The translations under genes and the position numbers were made by a program. DNA of 64,000 nucleotides, from contig CAWBHS010000080.1 of assembly GCA_963788655.1 (NCBI GenBank), positions 1 to 64,000 on the forward strand, given 5' to 3'. The notes below the pieces were generated by a model. That model was not told where the DNA came from. It searched no databases and saw nothing but the letters and a program-made list of their open reading frames with translations. Below are positions 2,004-26,619 of the stretch, piece by piece. Position 1 is the stretch's first letter; each line of letters begins with the position of its first letter. The DNA is from an uncultured Verrucomicrobiae bacterium (lineage in GTDB: Bacteria > Verrucomicrobiota > Verrucomicrobiia > Limisphaerales > JAFGQR01).

Positions 2004-3167
2004 TCAACGAACGGATTCCGTCGCCATGGGTTGGCCGGGTATGAAAATGCTGGCGCCGCCTGGGGCGGTGGGAATCACACGATCGCACGCAATGCCCCAC
2101 AGGTTCCATTGGCCATCGATGTAGTTACCGTTGGCCGGCAACGGGCAGGCTTGCGCGTACAGATACCACCGGCCATTGATCGGATACAGCGCCGGAGTAG
2201 CTACATGATAGATCGTGTCGTCTCGGTACAGTCCCTCCCACTTCGTTTGGAGCACGGTATCCACATCCATTTGCACCCAACCGCGGGCAGGATGTTCGCT
2301 CACCGCGATGACGGGGCGCCAGCGTTTGCCGGCTGAAATGCCGACCTCCATGGTGAGCACGTAGGTGTTGCCCAGTTTGAAAACCTGGTGCCACTCGTAG
2401 TAGGCACCGGGCGTGGACGTAAAAATCTGGCCCATGCCCCGCGGGTCTTTTTCGTTGAAGTGCCGCGTCCAGTGCTTCCCGTCACGCGAGGTGGCCAAGC
2501 GGAAACCAGGCAGGATGCCATCCTTGCCGCGGTAGGAGTAATACATGAACCAATCCCACCGTTGCGCCTTCGCATCCCATTCGCGCAGCACCGCCGATTG
2601 CGAGGCCATCTGCTCGAAATACGGTGCCGCCGGCTCGGGCGCGAGCACCGGTTGCGAACCGACCCGCCGAATCGCCGCCGGGGTGATACCCGAATACCCG
2701 TCGGCTCCGGCCGGGCATAAGGCCAGACCGATCCGGTCCTGAACTGAGGCCGTGGTGCCGGAGTAGTAAATGTAGTAAGAATCTTCCTCGGGAAGGTAGA
2801 GAACGGCATCGAGCCGGATACTCCCGGAATCCCAGCCTGCTTTTCCGGGGCCGAACACCGGATTGCGCGCATCCTGGTGCCAGGTAAGCGGATCAGACTT
2901 GAGCGCCCACGCTTTGCCGATGAAGCACCGGCTCCGGTTGGTCGCCGGCACGCCCGAGTAGAACATCACCAAACGCGTCGGATCTTTGGGATTGGGCAGG
3001 ATACATGGCTCCTGCACCTGCTGCGACTCCCAGGCGGCGTCGCTGCGGCTGACGATGATTTTCCCGCGGATGGACTTCGCCGGAACCGCCGCGTCTGCGG
3101 CGTCGCTCTGCGAGGTCAGAGCAAACAATTGGAGCCCGACAACGAGCGCGATAAAGATCGATTTCAT
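2004..3167 (-). CDS. Secreted five-bladed beta-propeller glycoside hydrolase-like protein (GH32/43/130-like)
   Basis: Signal peptide MKSIFIALVVGLQLFALTSQSDA; WESQQVQEPCI, RNPVFGPGKAGWDSG, YYIYYSG, IGLA, HVATPAL propeller motifs. Confidence 0.65.
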   Translation of the reverse strand: MKSIFIALVVGLQLFALTSQSDAADAAVPAKSIRGKIIVSRSDAAWESQQVQEPCILPNPKDPTRLVMFYSGVPATNRSRCFIGKAWALKSDPLTWHQDARNPVFGPGKAGWDSGSIRLDAVLYLPEEDSYYIYYSGTTASVQDRIGLALCPAGADGYSGITPAAIRRVGSQPVLAPEPAAPYFEQMASQSAVLREWDAKAQRWDWFMYYSYRGKDGILPGFRLATSRDGKHWTRHFNEKDPRGMGQIFTSTPGAYYEWHQVFKLGNTYVLTMEVGISAGKRWRPVIAVSEHPARGWVQMDVDTVLQTKWEGLYRDDTIYHVATPALYPINGRWYLYAQACPLPANGNYIDGQWNLWGIACDRVIPTAPGGASIFIPGQPMATESVR

Positions 3168-3329
3168 TGAATGAAACTGAAGCATGGAACGACGGATAAC
3201 GCGGATACACGGATGAACAGGTTCTGCAATTAGGTTTAGGACCGTTCGTGCACGACGCTGACCCTCTCGTGGATCGTGAATGTGGTAATGGAGTTCGGGT
3301 GGCGCAATTGGTTTGAACACTTCATAAAG

Positions 3330-4146
3330 ACCGGGTAGGCGTAGGCGGTCACCCGCCCACGCCCCCCTAAGAACCGGACTTGAAAGTTTCCCTTCATCAC
3401 GGCTCAAGCCTCTCCAAGGCCACCCCGGATGCGGGGGACCCGCGTAACCAGGAGGCCGGTGACACCCAAAGGCGTCATGGACCTTCCCAATCCCACTTGG
3501 CAATACCGGTCGGCGGCCATATCGCGCCCGGCTCCTTTGGGCCGCAGCACCGAGAGGCACCAAGCGACGGGCGTCGCTCGTCCTATGCTTCTCTCGCTTG
3601 AAGGGGTTCCGCTGATTTTCTTGCCAGGAGACACCAGATCGACGTGGGCATATCCGGTCCATTACCGACCGGCCTTGGCTTGTTCGATCCTCTTCATGCT
3701 GCCTCCCCTGGGCCTGCCTTGCGGTCGGCTTGCCTGGATACTCTCCAGGCGGGAACTGGCAGCTTTTCCATGTTCCGCATTCTCCACAGGATGGGTTAGG
3801 TCCACTCTGTACACCGGCGGTGCGCCATTCGCGTCGGGCTACGTTAGACAGCCCGAACTTGACCGCTGGCCTTCTTTTGGCCGGAGCCTTAAAACAGCCT
3901 CGTATGGCTCGTTCCTCTGACGATGCTTGCGAGTGTTCACGTGGGTTGACCCTACCATCCGATTCTAGCGCCGCACCCGGATTGAGGCTCCCAGGCTGGC
4001 TACATTGTCGGGAAGGCTTCACACCCTGGACAGTAGCCTTGCGGCCGCCCGCCCAACGCATGCTTCCCTGGAATACCTGCCGCGAAAGGCAGGACTGAGT
4101 CAGGTTGCCCATGCTCAGCAGTGATGAATGCGACTTCATGTCACAA
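3330..4146 (-). mobile_element. ORF-less group II intron (IIB / CL-like ribozyme), about 817 nt
   Basis: Minus strand domain V GAGCCGTGATGAAGGGAAACTTTCAAGTCCGGTTC (3405-3371) with AGC triad and GAAA loop. Domain VI GGGGGGCGTGGGCGG-GTGA-CCGCCTACGCCT(A)CCCGGT with bulged A. 5' end TTGTGACATGAAGTCGC. EBS1 loop CTAACG pairs with 5' exon CGTTGG. No RT motifs. Confidence 0.9.
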
Positions 4147-4210
4147 CCAACGCAAAGCTGAGCGACTGGTGGACTCTCACTTGGTGCGCGGCGGCGCCAG
4201 CCGCTGAAAT
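4147..4210 (-). other. Degenerate attC-like hairpin forming the intron target (5' exon)
   Basis: TTTCAGCGGCTGG...CCAGTCGCTCAGCTTTGCGTTGG|CT: 9-bp stem plus an L'/R'-like arm. The R'' box (RYYYAAC) is absent. Confidence 0.5.
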
Positions 4211-6213
4211 TGAATCTTCTTCTCTGTGCCGTCCGTGAGGCGCACCGTCAGGCGGTCGTCCTGGAACTCGACGGAATTCACCGGACAGGCCGCCGCGCCC
4301 GCGGTGGGACAGAGCGCGTAAAGCAACGTCACGTTGCCCGATGCCTCCTTGCGATAGATCGCTGTCGGGATGGGCCGGATGCCTCCGTAGCCGCCCCCAT
4401 GATCGGGCAGCCAACCTTGAACCACCGGCTCTTTCTGGCCCTTCACGATTTCACGCTGTCGGCTCCGAAGGCCAGCACGGTCAGGTTGGGACCGGCGTTC
4501 TGCGTGGCAACGCGCAATCCGTCCACCACCGCGTTCTCGGCGTCGAGGTGTAATAGCGTTTCGTAGGTGTGCGATTTGCCGTCCATTGGCTCCAGTTCGT
4601 CGGCGATGATGAACAGGTCGGGCTTGAGGTAGAAGACATGTCGTGTCTGGCGAACCAGGTGTTGTGCTTTTGGCCCCAAGCCTTCCTCATAAACAGCCGC
4701 GGCATGGTCGAAGGTGTCGTTGCTCTCCCAGACGTGCAGGAGTGGCGTCTTCACGACGAAGGTCGCCCTGGACGACTTGCGTCGGTTCTGCTCCAAGCCA
4801 TCCACGAGCACCACGTTGTGGGCTCGGCTGCTGAGCACGTAACGCCGCCAATCACTCGCGTCATACGTGTAGGTGCCGCCTTCGACCAGCAGCGGCCGTC
4901 CGAACGCGGTGAGGATCACACTGAGTTTGTCCTCGTGCTGGTGACCGAACCCAAACGGTCCGCCGTCCATGCACAGCCAGAGCGCGTTCCGATCCCAGCC
5001 GCTGCGCATGATGAACTGGCCGGCATACGGAAACTCGTGCGACGTATGGTCGGGCGGTTGGCCTTCCTTGCCGTCCGTGGCAACCCACCGGAAATCGGCG
5101 CGCTGCGGAAATAGTCTGGCCCCTTTCTCCAAGTAACGCATCACGCTGCCCGCACCGGAATCGTTCAACGGCGGCGTGGTCCGATTCGGCTGCATGGAGT
5201 CGAGGAAATAGGCGAACATCTTTTCCATCTTGGCCAGGTAATCGTCCGGCACTTTGAAGCCGGTCTGCGCCACCAATTCCACCGGCCCGAGGAAATTGCG
5301 GAGAGCGACACCGTGATAGCCGGGTGCGAGTTCGATCTGCGCCCCATCCGGATACACCTGCACATCCAACTCGCGGTAAAGCCGGCCCAACGCCGTTTCG
5401 CGCCAGAGCTTGGCTTCGGTGAATTCCGGGAACAGTGCGCCGACGTGATAGAGGCCGTTGGCTTCCATCGTCAGCCAATTGCCCTGCCGGTGGAACTTCG
5501 TCAGATATTGCGCGTGCTCGACAAAGCTCTTCACCATCAGCCCGAGCGCGTCGTCATCAAACGCCTTGGCCGCAAGGAAACGGGGAAACACCTCCGGCCA
5601 GACAGTGACCGGTACGGATGCCGGCCTCAATGGTGCGCCAACGGGAGAAGGCGACATTGGCCGGCTTGTCCAGCGGCACCGGGCAGTCGTGTACCAGCTC
5701 TTGCAGCTCGGCGACGAATTCGCGGGCATATTTCTCGTCGCCGGTCGCGTAAAAGGCGCGGGCGAGGTCCAGCCACACTGCGTGCCGGCTGAGCTGCCAG
5801 GTCCATTCATGGTTGCGCGGCCATTTCGAGTCGGGTTGTGTCGTCGGATTGAACGCCCAATCAATCTTGTCCCCGAACTGCCACGGGATGCCGATGCTGG
5901 TGAAGCGGTGCTTGAGGGCGTTGTCCGCACCGCTGCTGCGGAAGCGCGGCTCCCGTCCAACCGCGTGCGGATCCAGTCCCCAGCCCGGAATTTGCCGAGT
6001 GCGGAAATGCTCGGCCAAAGCGTGTTTCGCGGCCGGCCAATCGGACTTGGTGATGGCCTCCTTAACCTCCGCCAAATCTGGCTGCGACACATCTACCAGG
6101 GCGAAGAACTGTTCATCGGTGAGTCGCGGGCCAGTCGCCGAAGACGACGCAGGGACGGCGGTGGCAGTGAACCAGCCGCCGAGGACAATGCCGATAAGGA
6201 TTGCGCGGATCAT
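4177..6213 (-). CDS. Heparinase II/III family polysaccharide lyase, secreted (frameshifted)
   Basis: Signal peptide; HEWTWQLSRH, GNWLTMEANGLY, DGAQIELAPGYH, GHQHEDKLS, SRAHNVVLVDG. Split over ORFs 5557-6246, 4443-6092 and 4177-4446. Confidence 0.85.
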
Positions 6214-11464: not shown

Positions 11465-12397
11465 ATGTTCGCAACTAATTTGCAGTGGATTCTTCCGACC
11501 GGCCGACGACTGATCGGCCAAGGTCGTCGTCTTCACCTGCCGTGCCGTGCCGGTCTTACGGCGTTGTTACTCGGTGCAGTGTGCCTGGTAAATGTCCTCG
11601 CGGCTACGCCGGCCGATAAGTTCGCGAAAGAGATTCGGCGTTACGATGAATTGGCGGCGGCAGCCCGGGAGACGCTGGCGGCTCGCCTGGGCGACCTCAA
11701 CGACTTCCCGGTGTTCAAGAAAGTGGATGGCCCACTGATCACGAAACATCTGGAGGCGGTTTCCCAAACGTGGGCCGAAGCGGCGCGGGCGCTCGAGGAG
11801 GGTAACGAAACCGCCGCCGCCGCCCTGGCCCGGCGGGCGGAGGAGCTGGCGGGTCAGCGCGGTCGTTGGGAACAGCGGCTGAACTGGCGGCGCCTGCAAG
11901 CGCAGCATGAATACTTGCCGGCTACCGCCAAGGTGTTCTTCATGCTGGCGACCGAGCGCAATGGAGACCTTGAAAAGGAGGTGGGAGCTTTCCTGGAAGC
12001 CAAGCGACGCCGTTCCGAGGCTTACGGTCGCCTGGCCGAAGCGACCACTCCTGCGGCCGACGATCAGATCCTCTTTAAGCTTCAGGATGAAGTGTTCGCT
12101 CTGGATGTCGAAGTGGGGGTGGCCGACATGAAGTATGGTTGGGCGCGAGAAGATTGGGACTTCCACCGGTGGGTCGTGACGGATCCGAAGGTGATCTCCC
12201 TGGAACTCCGCGCCGCCCAGGAACGGTTGACGGAGTGGAGACACCAACGCGAGCAGACCTACCGGCAATCCCGGAACGAGCAACATGAGCTGGAGCGATT
12301 GGATCGCGAGCGCGAGGCCTTGCTCAAAGCACGGGAAAACGCCTATCGAACCGCCAAGGCAGCACGGAATTCATCCGGTCAATCTTCCGAACGATAA
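11465..12397 (+). CDS. Secreted or membrane-anchored helical coiled-coil hypothetical protein
   Basis: Hydrophobic segment followed by E/R/A-rich heptads. Confidence 0.6.
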   Translation: MFATNLQWILPTGRRLIGQGRRLHLPCRAGLTALLLGAVCLVNVLAATPADKFAKEIRRYDELAAAARETLAARLGDLNDFPVFKKVDGPLITKHLEAVSQTWAEAARALEEGNETAAAALARRAEELAGQRGRWEQRLNWRRLQAQHEYLPATAKVFFMLATERNGDLEKEVGAFLEAKRRRSEAYGRLAEATTPAADDQILFKLQDEVFALDVEVGVADMKYGWAREDWDFHRWVVTDPKVISLELRAAQERLTEWRHQREQTYRQSRNEQHELERLDREREALLKARENAYRTAKAARNSSGQSSER

Positions 12398-12420
12398 AGC
12401 AGAATCCGGACACCCCAGAT

Positions 12421-13746
12421 ATGACGAAGAACCTCATGATGCGATCGGCGATGCGAATTTGTTGGGCGGTATGTTGGACGATGGCGGTATGGGCCCAAGC
12501 TGCATTGGGTGGCAGCGTGTTGACGCGCGATGGCAATACCCACACCGGGCAGGTGGCATTCAGGGCGGGCAACCTGGTTGCGGTGACACCGGCGAGCGGG
12601 GAGGCGCAGACTGTGCCGCTCGATGAAGTTGCCAGAATCACCCTGGTGGAGCCGATGCAGGCGGCCGGAAAACCTGCGGACCGCGATCCTCATTTACCGC
12701 TGCCGTGGCAACAAGCCGATGTTGGTCGGGTGAAGGGGCCAGGAAGCGGTCAGGAAGCGAACGGCGTTTTCACCGTGCGGGGGGCGGGTTGGGGCGTTTG
12801 GGGTGAGGCGGATTCGTTCCACTTCGTCTATCAGCCTTGCGTCGGAGATATTGACGTGAGGGTGCGCCTGGGAGCGCCGCCGAGCGAAGAGGACGCCTTC
12901 ATGGCCGGACTCAGCCTCCGCGAAACGTTGGATGCCAGCGCCACTCAGGCGTCGGTGATGCTGTTCCCTGGGGGCGTCGTTTGGATGAGTTGCCGGCCCG
13001 TCAGCGGGGCGGTCGAATCGACAACGACGCCTGGGAACATGCCCTATCAATGGTTGCGATTGGCCCGGACCGGCGACCACTTCAGTGGGTTCTGCTCCCG
13101 GGACGGGAAGAGCTGGATCCTGGCGGGAACGGTCAAGGTCAAGATGGACCTCACCGCCTACGTGGGTCTGGCGTGCGCGACCACATTGAATCACGCAGTG
13201 TTGGGAACCACGTTCGATCACTTCACGCTCGGTGCCCATAGCATGGGGCCGGCCGAAGGCTTCGGATTGGTGGACGGTTCTCTGGTGGCCGCTCGCGTGC
13301 AACAGATGGATGAGCAATGGCTGCAGTATGTGGATGCCGCCGGAACAGAACAGCGGCTGCCGGCAAACGCCGTGGCGTATCTACTTACGCGTCCTTTGCC
13401 TTCGGACGTGCGTGAAGCGTTGGCCAAACAGGCCCCGGGTGTCGCTTTGGCTAACGGCGATAAAATCGAGGGTTACGTCGAAAGCGTCCGTCACGGCAAA
13501 GTCGGCGTCACCTCGTTGCTGTTTGGCCACCAGAACCTGCCGTTCTCGCAGGTAGTCACCGCGGTGCTGCGACCCACGAATGCCCGTGGGACGTTTTCGG
13601 TAACCATCCGCGACGGCTCGATTTACCGTTGCCCTAAATTAACCGTGAGTGATGGAGTGGTGACCGCCGAAAACGAAACCCTTGGCACGATGGACCTGAA
13701 GGCGGAAGCGATCGCGGAAATAGACCTGGGATTGTCACGCGAATGA
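12421..13746 (+). CDS. Secreted protein with a DUF1349/ConA-like domain
   Basis: Signal peptide; GAGWGVWGEADSFHFVYQ, AGLSLRETL, WLRLARTGDHFSGFCSRDGKSW, YVGLA. Confidence 0.7.
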   Translation: MTKNLMMRSAMRICWAVCWTMAVWAQAALGGSVLTRDGNTHTGQVAFRAGNLVAVTPASGEAQTVPLDEVARITLVEPMQAAGKPADRDPHLPLPWQQADVGRVKGPGSGQEANGVFTVRGAGWGVWGEADSFHFVYQPCVGDIDVRVRLGAPPSEEDAFMAGLSLRETLDASATQASVMLFPGGVVWMSCRPVSGAVESTTTPGNMPYQWLRLARTGDHFSGFCSRDGKSWILAGTVKVKMDLTAYVGLACATTLNHAVLGTTFDHFTLGAHSMGPAEGFGLVDGSLVAARVQQMDEQWLQYVDAAGTEQRLPANAVAYLLTRPLPSDVREALAKQAPGVALANGDKIEGYVESVRHGKVGVTSLLFGHQNLPFSQVVTAVLRPTNARGTFSVTIRDGSIYRCPKLTVSDGVVTAENETLGTMDLKAEAIAEIDLGLSRE

Positions 13747-26534: not shown

Positions 26535-26619
26535 TGGTGCCCGCGACAGGATTTGAACCTGTACCCGGTTACCGACTAGAACCTGAATCTAGCGCGTCTG
26601 CCAATTCCGCCACGCGGGC
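26535..26619 (-). tRNA. tRNA-Leu (CAG)
   Basis: GCCCGCGTGGCGGAATTGGCAGACGCGCTAGATTCAGGTTCTAGTCGGTAACCGGGTACAGGTTCAAATCCTGTCGCGGGCACCA; long variable arm, encoded CCA. Confidence 0.97.

Follow-up and report, generated by a model that had tools for sequence, protein, structure and literature searches.

Integrons are the main gene-capture platforms of bacteria, and to our knowledge textbooks link them only to class IIC group II introns, which lie antisense and are guided by a hairpin. In a single case, a class IIC intron is also said to have inserted into an attC site on its top strand, in cassette sense. Here we analyzed a group II intron without an open reading frame (ORF), located in a stretch of 64,000 nucleotides (nt), the window, which comprises positions 1 to 64,000 of contig CAWBHS010000080.1 from an uncultured Verrucomicrobiae bacterium (assembly GCA_963788655.1). 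An earlier note, made from the letters of this DNA alone, had inferred a IIB lineage that targets the R' boxes of attC by base pairing. We conclude that this inference was right for the intron family and overstated for the window's own insertion site. Very probably, the element is a non-autonomous chloroplast-like (CL)/IIB intron from a family whose members retrohome into attC at its 3' end, on the cassette strand and with a three-part target, and the window harbors an off-site copy.

Group IIC-attC introns (S.ma.I2 and relatives) are outlined in passages of two articles (PMC7923331, PMC8876359) as class C introns that lie antisense to the cassettes and insert into the bottom strand at TTGT/T in the R'' box. 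According to the same passages, they have an exon-binding site 1 (EBS1) of 3 to 4 bp, no EBS2, and a hairpin in place of the intron-binding site 2 (IBS2). Where it deals with introns, a 2022 integron review mentions this type only (PMC8876359). In the literature on IIB or group II introns in connection with attC, EBS1 and cassette orientation, judged mostly from abstracts, the sole IIB intron at an attC that we found was UHB.I2 (Sonbol and Siam 2021, Mob DNA 12:8, PMC7923331). In the sections devoted to it, UHB.I2 is described as a IIB1 RNA with a CL1-class, endonuclease-less protein and the ends 5'-UUGCG..GU-3'. It lies in cassette orientation directly after an attC, as one ORF-carrying copy on a metagenome contig; in those sections, the authors report that no exon conservation was seen and only speculate on a role of the hairpin. 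For the TeI3/TeI4 introns of Thermosynechococcus elongatus, the relevant parts of Mohr et al. 2010 (PMC2882425) state that ORF-less copies outnumber ORF-carrying ones and are mobilised in trans by "driver" proteins. They also state that the TeI4 introns are CL/IIB1 and that their protein ends in D and endonuclease (En) domains.

The family analyzed here resembles UHB.I2 as described: it is IIB1/CL, lacks an endonuclease, has unusual ends (here UUGUG..GU), and lies in cassette sense at the attC 3' end. It is set apart from that description by being multi-copy and mostly ORF-less, by a fixed register in R', by an EBS1 complementary to R', and by an occupancy that depends on R'. With the group IIC-attC introns it shares integron attC as natural homing sites, which for those introns include attC clusters without integrase. 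Unlike them, it is IIB/CL, lies in sense orientation in R' after GTTAG, and uses a 6-bp EBS1 together with an EBS2; neither class C features, nor antisense orientation, nor insertion at TTGT/T in R'' were found in the family. Like the T. elongatus introns, it is CL/IIB1, with TeI4h as its closest solved relative and with ORF-less copies outnumbering ORF-carrying ones. However, TeI4h contains a D and an En domain and is directed to targets other than attC, and ORF deletion in T. elongatus, as far as described, leaves recognisable ORF remnants, whereas nt 569-725 of the window intron have no detectable similarity to the ORF. The family adds to a kind of intron reported once (UHB.I2) a new member that is present in multiple copies, most of them without an ORF, and provides computational evidence on how attC is found.

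The source genome (8.96 Mb in 115 contigs, 86% complete) contains seven near-identical ORF-less copies of 817 nt, three ORF-carrying copies (on C44, C46 and C99; C-numbers denote contigs of this genome) whose RNA is about 90% identical to the ORF-less form, one ORF-carrying copy of 75% identity (C50), and four further intron fragments. The 5' flanks end with CGTTAG (10 junctions), CGTTGG (the window and C17) or CGTTCG (one 36-nt relic), and upstream of these exon ends we found GTCG[CG]T[CG]A followed by 6 to 7 further bases. An alignment of 19 empty sites revealed the R''/R' and L''/L' helices of attC with bulged bases on the 5' arm; 95.2% of its cells were paired and 12 pairs were changed on both sides, in comparison to 22-50% paired cells in slid controls. 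From these 19 empty attC of the source genome, which were chosen with a pattern requiring L' and CGTT[AG]G, we built a covariance model (R1) that was used instead of the IntegronFinder model.

For 12 of the 13 junctions having a 5' flank, the end of the R1 match coincided exactly with the last exon base, with 39-105 bits (C17, 71.5; C49, 69.6; C93, 45.3; C59, 59.8 and 45.4; C9, 69.6 and 39.0; C44, 45.4; C46, 53.7; C50, 46.9; C27, 105.2 and 44.5). The copies on C99 and C56 lack a 5' junction and are outside the 13. All 12 junctions abutting an attC were in cassette orientation, after GTTAG|, at the attC 3' end as in UHB.I2, and the sole exception was the window copy. Furthermore, the genome contains integrons, that is, an integrase gene with a divergent attC array. 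Matches to the integron integrase family TIGR02249 (cut-off 265) were detected on C59 (66134-67021, plus strand), C49 (288364-289293, minus strand) and C69 with scores of 397, 352 and 275 bits among them, although stops were flagged inside two of the three, and nine attC matches each on C49 and C59 adjoin the integrase genes. Intron copies at C59:60957-61782 (minus strand) and C49:295276-296100 (plus strand) are located 4-6 kb from these genes, on the cassette strand of the arrays diverging from them.

Similar abutments were found in relatives from other sources (L-numbers denote the collected loci). R1 ended on the last exon base in L033 (a Limisphaerales metagenome-assembled genome [MAG]; 49 bits, with two more attC downstream), L054 (33.9 bits), L076 (19.7 bits), and the metagenome contigs L145 (55.7 bits) and L141 (25.5 bits). 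In L029 and L048, it fell short of the junction by one base. In L134, which has the same EBS1 and a CGTTAG exon, R1 detected no attC, and this locus is not counted as an abutment. A weak match in L155 (20 bits) was left out of the count as well, its end lying at another position than the intron start read from the sequence. Together with the 12 of 13 junctions, the five abutments support, for the family, the earlier proposal of insertion on the top (cassette) strand at the R' box of attC.

The intron in the window (3330..4146, minus strand; 5'-UUGUGAC...CCUACCCGGU-3') was delimited by Rfam matches and by comparison of copies. RF02012 (domains I-IV) matched 4094-3969 (minus strand) with 61.9 bits (cut-off 34), and RF00029 aligned domains V and VI to 3330..3407 (minus strand) with 49.6 bits (gathering threshold 40). 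Both hallmarks of a group II ribozyme are present: a domain V AGC triad, which we assign to 3404-3402, and a bulged A in domain VI, for which position 3336, 7 nt before the 3' end, is the candidate branch point. Since the copies in the genome all have different flanks, the ends 4146 and 3330 are fixed. In the profile alignment, U1U2G3U4G5A6C7 lined up with the canonical GUGCGAC of relatives. Therefore, the 5' splice site given previously, with the exon ending CGTTGG at 4152-4147 and the intron starting UUGUGAC at 4146, is right, and position 1 is a U. The ends UUGUG ... GGU of the window intron do not correspond to the IIB/CL consensus 5'-GUGYG ... AY-3'. However, U1 recurs among relatives, and the departure is a trait of the lineage that gives no ground for exclusion from IIB/CL. 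Among the copies in the genome, the first 3' exon base is C or G.

The protein evidence for the class comes from the C44 copy, which is 90% identical to the ORF-less window copy. The C44 and C99 copies have an open frame of 505 residues, and the C44 protein (P0001) contains the domains RVT_N, RVT_1 and GIIM; at E<=0.001, further families were not detected. Its best match in the PDB was the TeI4h maturase-reverse transcriptase (RT; 6me0_C; E 1e-167), while LtrA (IIA/mitochondrial-like [ML]; 1.8e-38) and the IIC RTs (4e-36 to 7e-34) scored more weakly. Because the alignment to TeI4h stops at residue 480/562, about 80 residues short of the TeI4h chain end, P0001 lacks the En part. Judged from this related protein, the lineage is CL/IIB with a predicted endonuclease-less RT, in agreement with the IIB assignment in the earlier note. 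In a blastn comparison with the C44 copy, nt 1-568 and nt 726-817 of the window intron were 90% and 88% identical, respectively. The intervening nt 569-725 (157 nt; 3422..3578, minus strand), a remnant of domain IV, had no similarity detectable by blastn to the ORF region of C44.

The ORF-carrying copies at C44:29705 and C46:2429 have a near-identical attC and upstream flank and different 3' exons, and the C46 reading frame is cut at 401 residues. The shared flank could be due to duplication, to recombination through the intron, or to an assembly effect. At C27:23848-23883 (L012/L019), the intron 5' end survives as a 36-nt relic (TGGTGACATG...) that adjoins the attC of 44.5 bits with the R' box CGTTCG. 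This is the sole junction with a non-complementary R', likely because of mutation after insertion.

To locate the guide sequences, we collected 79 loci of relatives from genomes and 79 from metagenomes; alignment of the 5' parts was done with nhmmer, iterating the profile. Each alignment bin was then scanned for perfect Watson-Crick/G-U 6-mers against the six bases that end the 5' exon of the respective intron. L086, with its tandem introns, and L037/L038, which are identical to L036, had been dropped beforehand. Among the 24 relatives scanned, only one bin paired with exon positions -6..-1. It corresponds to the loop of the hairpin UCGGGCUG-UCUAACG-UAGCCCGA (3834..3856, minus strand), and paired in 16 of the 24, while 200 shuffles gave a mean of 2.95 and a maximum of 7. 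The metagenome set yielded the same loop, with pairing in 23 of 38 distinct exon/loop pairs (shuffled mean 2.81, maximum 9; 1000 shuffles). The EBS1 that had been postulated in this loop is thereby confirmed in two sets of relatives as CUAACG at 3847-3842. Its partner in the window, IBS1, is the R'-box-like core CGTTGG (4147..4152, minus strand), with one G-U in the pairing. Among the folds of 3866-3826, the hairpin has the lowest energy, although the corresponding z-score reaches only -1.87.

The exon/EBS1 pairs among relatives include CGTTAG/CUAACG, GTTCGC/GCGAAC, GTTATG/CAUAAC, CCGTTA/UAACGG, CGATAA/UUAUCG and CTGCCT/AGGCAG; the covariation extends to exons at non-attC sites. In a protein tree (FastTree), GTT-type targets were found in one clade of 18 rows (Shimodaira-Hasegawa [SH]-like support 93) and a Bacteroidales sister group, and the Burkholderiaceae, enterobacterial and clostridial branches had unrelated targets.

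For EBS2, the scan against exon positions -15..-6 in the 24 relatives also revealed one bin only, with pairing in 14 of 24 (shuffled mean 3.15, maximum 7). It is located about 30 nt upstream of AAGGCU (3890-3885, minus strand), the EBS2 candidate of the earlier note, and places EBS2 at CAGAGG (3914..3919, minus strand). CAGAGG pairs 5/6 with the window exon and 4-5/6 with other occupied sites. In the window, CAGAG forms five contiguous pairs with CUUUG (IBS2; 4153..4157, minus strand), which is at the position of the attC spacer. With these scans, the pairing of a 6-bp EBS1 and an EBS2 with the 5' exon, as expected for IIB/CL, was found.

AAGGCU was rejected. It is the 3' stem of a hairpin, AAGCC-AAAGRUGCUGAYA-GGCUU, which is kept among relatives with unrelated exons. 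The stretch had no excess in the covariation scan, and its mean pairing was 3.9/6 at occupied and 4.5/6 at empty attC. It pairs 6/6 with AGCUUU of the window exon, but other occupied sites fit it worse than they fit CAGAGG, and the match in the window is due to chance. Two other candidates, CGAGGC in the loop AUACGAGGCUG and ACCCAC at 3946-3941, were dropped, their homologues being kept across relatives with unrelated exons.

The influence of the R' sequence was analyzed by counting occupied sites among 79 attC that reach the 3' end and were found by a sequence profile of the 19 sites. Introns were present at 7 of 25 attC with CGTTAG, 1 of 18 with CGTTGG, none of 21 with CGTTCG, and none of 15 with eight other R' types. 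Accordingly, 8/43 sites with CGTTAG or CGTTGG were occupied versus 0/36 with other R' boxes (Fisher p 0.0067), and the difference persisted when duplicates were removed (7/42 versus 0/35, p 0.014). The order perfect match, wobble, mismatch is the one predicted by EBS1 pairing. Three more occupied CGTTAG sites (C93, C50 and C9:105878) were found by the covariance model only. The boundaries of the intron, its family, the attC register, the positions of EBS1 and EBS2 and the R' dependence of occupancy were all obtained by computation.

Next to the window copy, the site has only part of an attC. Without the intron, it would read ...CCAGTCGCTCAGCTTTGCGTTGG|CTTTATG, as given before. The L'-box-like GTCGCTCA (4159..4166, minus strand) agrees with GTCG[CG]T[CG]A, the L' consensus of the genome's attC. 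An upstream arm, AGCGGCTGG (4197..4205, minus strand), forms a 9-bp stem, likewise read correctly in the earlier note, with CCAGTCGCT (4169-4161), including one G-T. L', spacer and R' are thus present, but the arrangement R''(RYYYAAC)-L''...L'-R'(GTTRRRY) with a score above background was not found. Within the 150 nt upstream, no AAC that could belong to an R'' box is found, and the spacers are unequal (2 versus 6 nt). Moreover, R1 gave the window's site 8.5 bits with an E of 5.4, which places it 22nd among 38 matches in the window (top match, 13.2 bits), and aligned 4174-4147 only. We detected neither an integron integrase (TIGR02249) nor another attC (R1) on the window's contig. The site had been regarded as a degenerate solo attC; it is solitary and without intI on its contig, but it scores as attC background. 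The ATG downstream of the insertion point, which had been compared to a cassette start, does not support this comparison: the ATG at 3325 opens a frame of only 29 codons, and the next long gene starts at 3167. The window copy is inserted off-site, in a stretch of 20 nt in which only L'-spacer-R' of an attC is retained.

Whether this stretch is a decayed true attC, short and with its 5' half drifted inside the end of the upstream gene, or a chance look-alike was weighed with evidence on both sides. The 20 nt at 4166-4147 differ by one base from the 3' end of a true attC at C39:38330 (manual string comparison), and TTCAGCG on the L'' side is common to both. In addition, a rough estimate from base composition gives about 0.002 expected occurrences per genome of a full L' followed by YTYTG and CGTTRG. 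On the other hand, the covariance model gives a background score, the AAC of R'' is missing and the spacers differ in length, the upstream arm belongs to the coding sequence for the C-terminus of a heparinase-like gene, and the contig has no other attC and no intI. We therefore hold the decayed attC only tentatively, at slightly less than an even chance.

The same site bears on what selects attC in general. Thirty-two sites in the genome read YTYTG-CGTTRG (IBS2 plus IBS1). The window's site alone is occupied, an L' box is present in 3 of the 32, and the 29 equally complementary sites without L' are all empty. Pairing alone is therefore insufficient, and L' or something tied to it must also be read. 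As to the earlier proposal of targeting by base pairing, its first part stands, in that EBS1 reads R' and occupancy follows complementarity; as a full account of targeting, it does not. The 29 empty sites would also be in line with structure recognition as in class IIC, with the ribonucleoprotein reading the folded top-strand attC hairpin and the EBS1/R' pairing adding little. A 9-bp stem does adjoin the insertion point in the window, and a hairpin role of this type was speculated on by Sonbol and Siam (PMC7923331, section 11). Yet the window site is occupied at 8.5 bits and without an R'' box; since it lacks the attC fold, the whole attC hairpin is not required. Furthermore, none of the 36 well-folded attC with non-complementary R' is occupied, compared to 8 of 43 complementary ones, EBS1 follows the local R' variant and register in relatives, and, unlike in IIC introns, a 6-bp EBS1 plus EBS2 is found here. 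Recognition of structure in place of pairing is thus improbable. Integrase crossover takes place at G|TT in attC, and GTTAG| lies 4 nt 3' of it. An intron at this position could move passively with the downstream cassette, the constant TTAG being carried along and not selected by EBS1, and the nearly identical 5' flanks of C44 and C46 fit such a spread. However, all copies having a 3' junction differ in 3' exon and downstream gene. Each intron/3'-exon joint thus requires a separate insertion, and the pattern cannot be explained by spread with cassettes. The window copy is outside any array, and EBS1 covaries with exons at non-attC sites too, which makes passive spread highly improbable.

Several observations weigh against our reading of a target composed of R', spacer and L'. 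Eighteen of the 25 CGTTAG attC are empty, CGTTAG occurs 974 times in the genome, and the 29 complementary sites mentioned above are unused. Complementarity to EBS2 did not differ between occupied and empty attC (mean 4.5/6 versus 4.26/6, p 0.30). The 9-bp stem at the window site mimics L''/L', and a local hairpin is possible as a cue. EBS1 does not fit its exon in all relatives (L048 pairs 3/6, L029 5/6, and L086 is a tandem-intron junction), and the support for the clade with GTT-type targets is modest. The count of attC of other types may be too low, since only sites with L' and CGTT[AG]G fitted the training pattern. Finally, four sequencing runs match the intron body only (about 3361-4131), reach neither exon and gave no exon joint.

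In the proposed mechanism, EBS1 would pair with the R' box CGTTAG and EBS2 loosely with the attC spacer, and the L' box at -13 to -20 would be needed in addition, most likely read by the intron-encoded protein. Insertion after GTTAG| would be 3' of the integrase crossover; therefore, the intron would become the first part of the downstream cassette and be transcribed in sense, and would thus be able to splice out. Splicing and mobilisation of the ORF-less copies presumably take place in trans, with the endonuclease-less RT-maturase encoded by ORF-carrying copies of about 90% identity elsewhere in the genome. We infer these steps, namely reverse splicing into DNA, provision of the protein in trans, L' recognition by the protein, and splicing. 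Reading of L' by the protein is suggested because group II intron proteins read the distal 5' exon, as stated in the Background section of PMC7923331.

On a wider reading, possible though doubtful, the intron would be a doubly mobile passenger that combines its own retrohoming with integrase transport together with the downstream cassette and with splicing out of cassette transcripts, and the ORF-less derivatives would be miniature parasites of the ORF-carrying intron. As a natural experiment, the genome suggests that a second solution exists, in which a IIB-type intron reads the attC 3' end in sense by pairing. It becomes testable how an endonuclease-less intron finds a DNA site able to fold, whether sense introns are tolerated through splicing from cassette transcripts, and whether they travel with cassettes. 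Targetron-type work could also benefit from such an intron, which is IIB, naturally "programmed", and directed to a target that is short and defined (L'-spacer-R'). For the window alone, the significance is modest: it contains one off-site copy of an attC-homing family. On the same wider reading, it is possible, though doubtful, that a widespread endonuclease-less CL/IIB1 clade has its EBS1 set to the conserved GTT core of R', its protein reading L', and cassette junctions as dedicated homing sites. This clade was seen in records of Verrucomicrobiota, Thermodesulfobacteriota, Chlorobiota and Bacteroidota, as well as in numerous contigs from metagenomes.

In Vibrio/Shewanella/Photobacterium loci (L061-L097 and others), which belong to a separate protein clade, the 3' flanks contain ACA-n5-GTGTTAGG, GTGTTAAC or GAGTTAGC. 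These motifs stand about 8-10 nt after the intron end (...CUACUCGAC|), and the 5' ends were not recovered by the profile. With what looks like an attC R' core just downstream, this clade may represent a second lineage inside attC, upstream of R'. L086 (1795-4496; a Desulfatiglandales MAG) contains head-to-tail tandem introns, and the 24 nt before two of the 5' ends correspond to an intron 3' end (...CCCCUGGCUACUCGAC). In the metagenome contigs L144 and L146, introns with the EBS1 GAAGCC are inserted after ...TTCCTCGGCTTC and ...TTCCTGGGCTTC. Their target resembles the conserved F-L-G-F coding stretch of an RT gene, in which case introns would be homing into the ORFs of other introns.

In run X4, a metatranscriptome library made from sediment, one contig of 759 nt matches window positions 3492-4125 with 26 differences. 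The RNA library thus appears to contain relatives of the ORF-less intron, with DNA carry-over as a possible source, and shows neither transcription nor splicing of the window copy. The exact 26-nt exon string had no match in metagenome contigs. A search for an orthologous empty locus, using the 5' flank 4147-4900 against 30 relatives of the same order or genus, gave short spurious matches only.

The gene upstream of the insertion (4177..6092, minus strand) is heparinase II/III-like (PF16889, PF07940) and is split into two frames, 4443-6092 and the 89-codon 4177-4446, which overlap by 4 nt (4443-4446). The PF07940 match is cut at 185/237, and a frameshift or assembly error is probable. The arm 4205-4197 of the stem lies within the coding end of this gene, the stop codon of which is TGA at 4179-4177. 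Downstream, a gene of 387 aa (2004..3167, minus strand; ORF list and Pfam) is weakly GH43-like and starts 162 nt from the insertion site. The top R1 match in the window is at 12388-12467 (minus strand; 13.2 bits; E 0.34, not significant) and has the ends GCCCAAC...CGTTCG, which are the correct motifs for an attC. A tRNA gene with a long variable arm is located at 26538-26619 (minus strand; Rfam tRNA, 56.4 bits).

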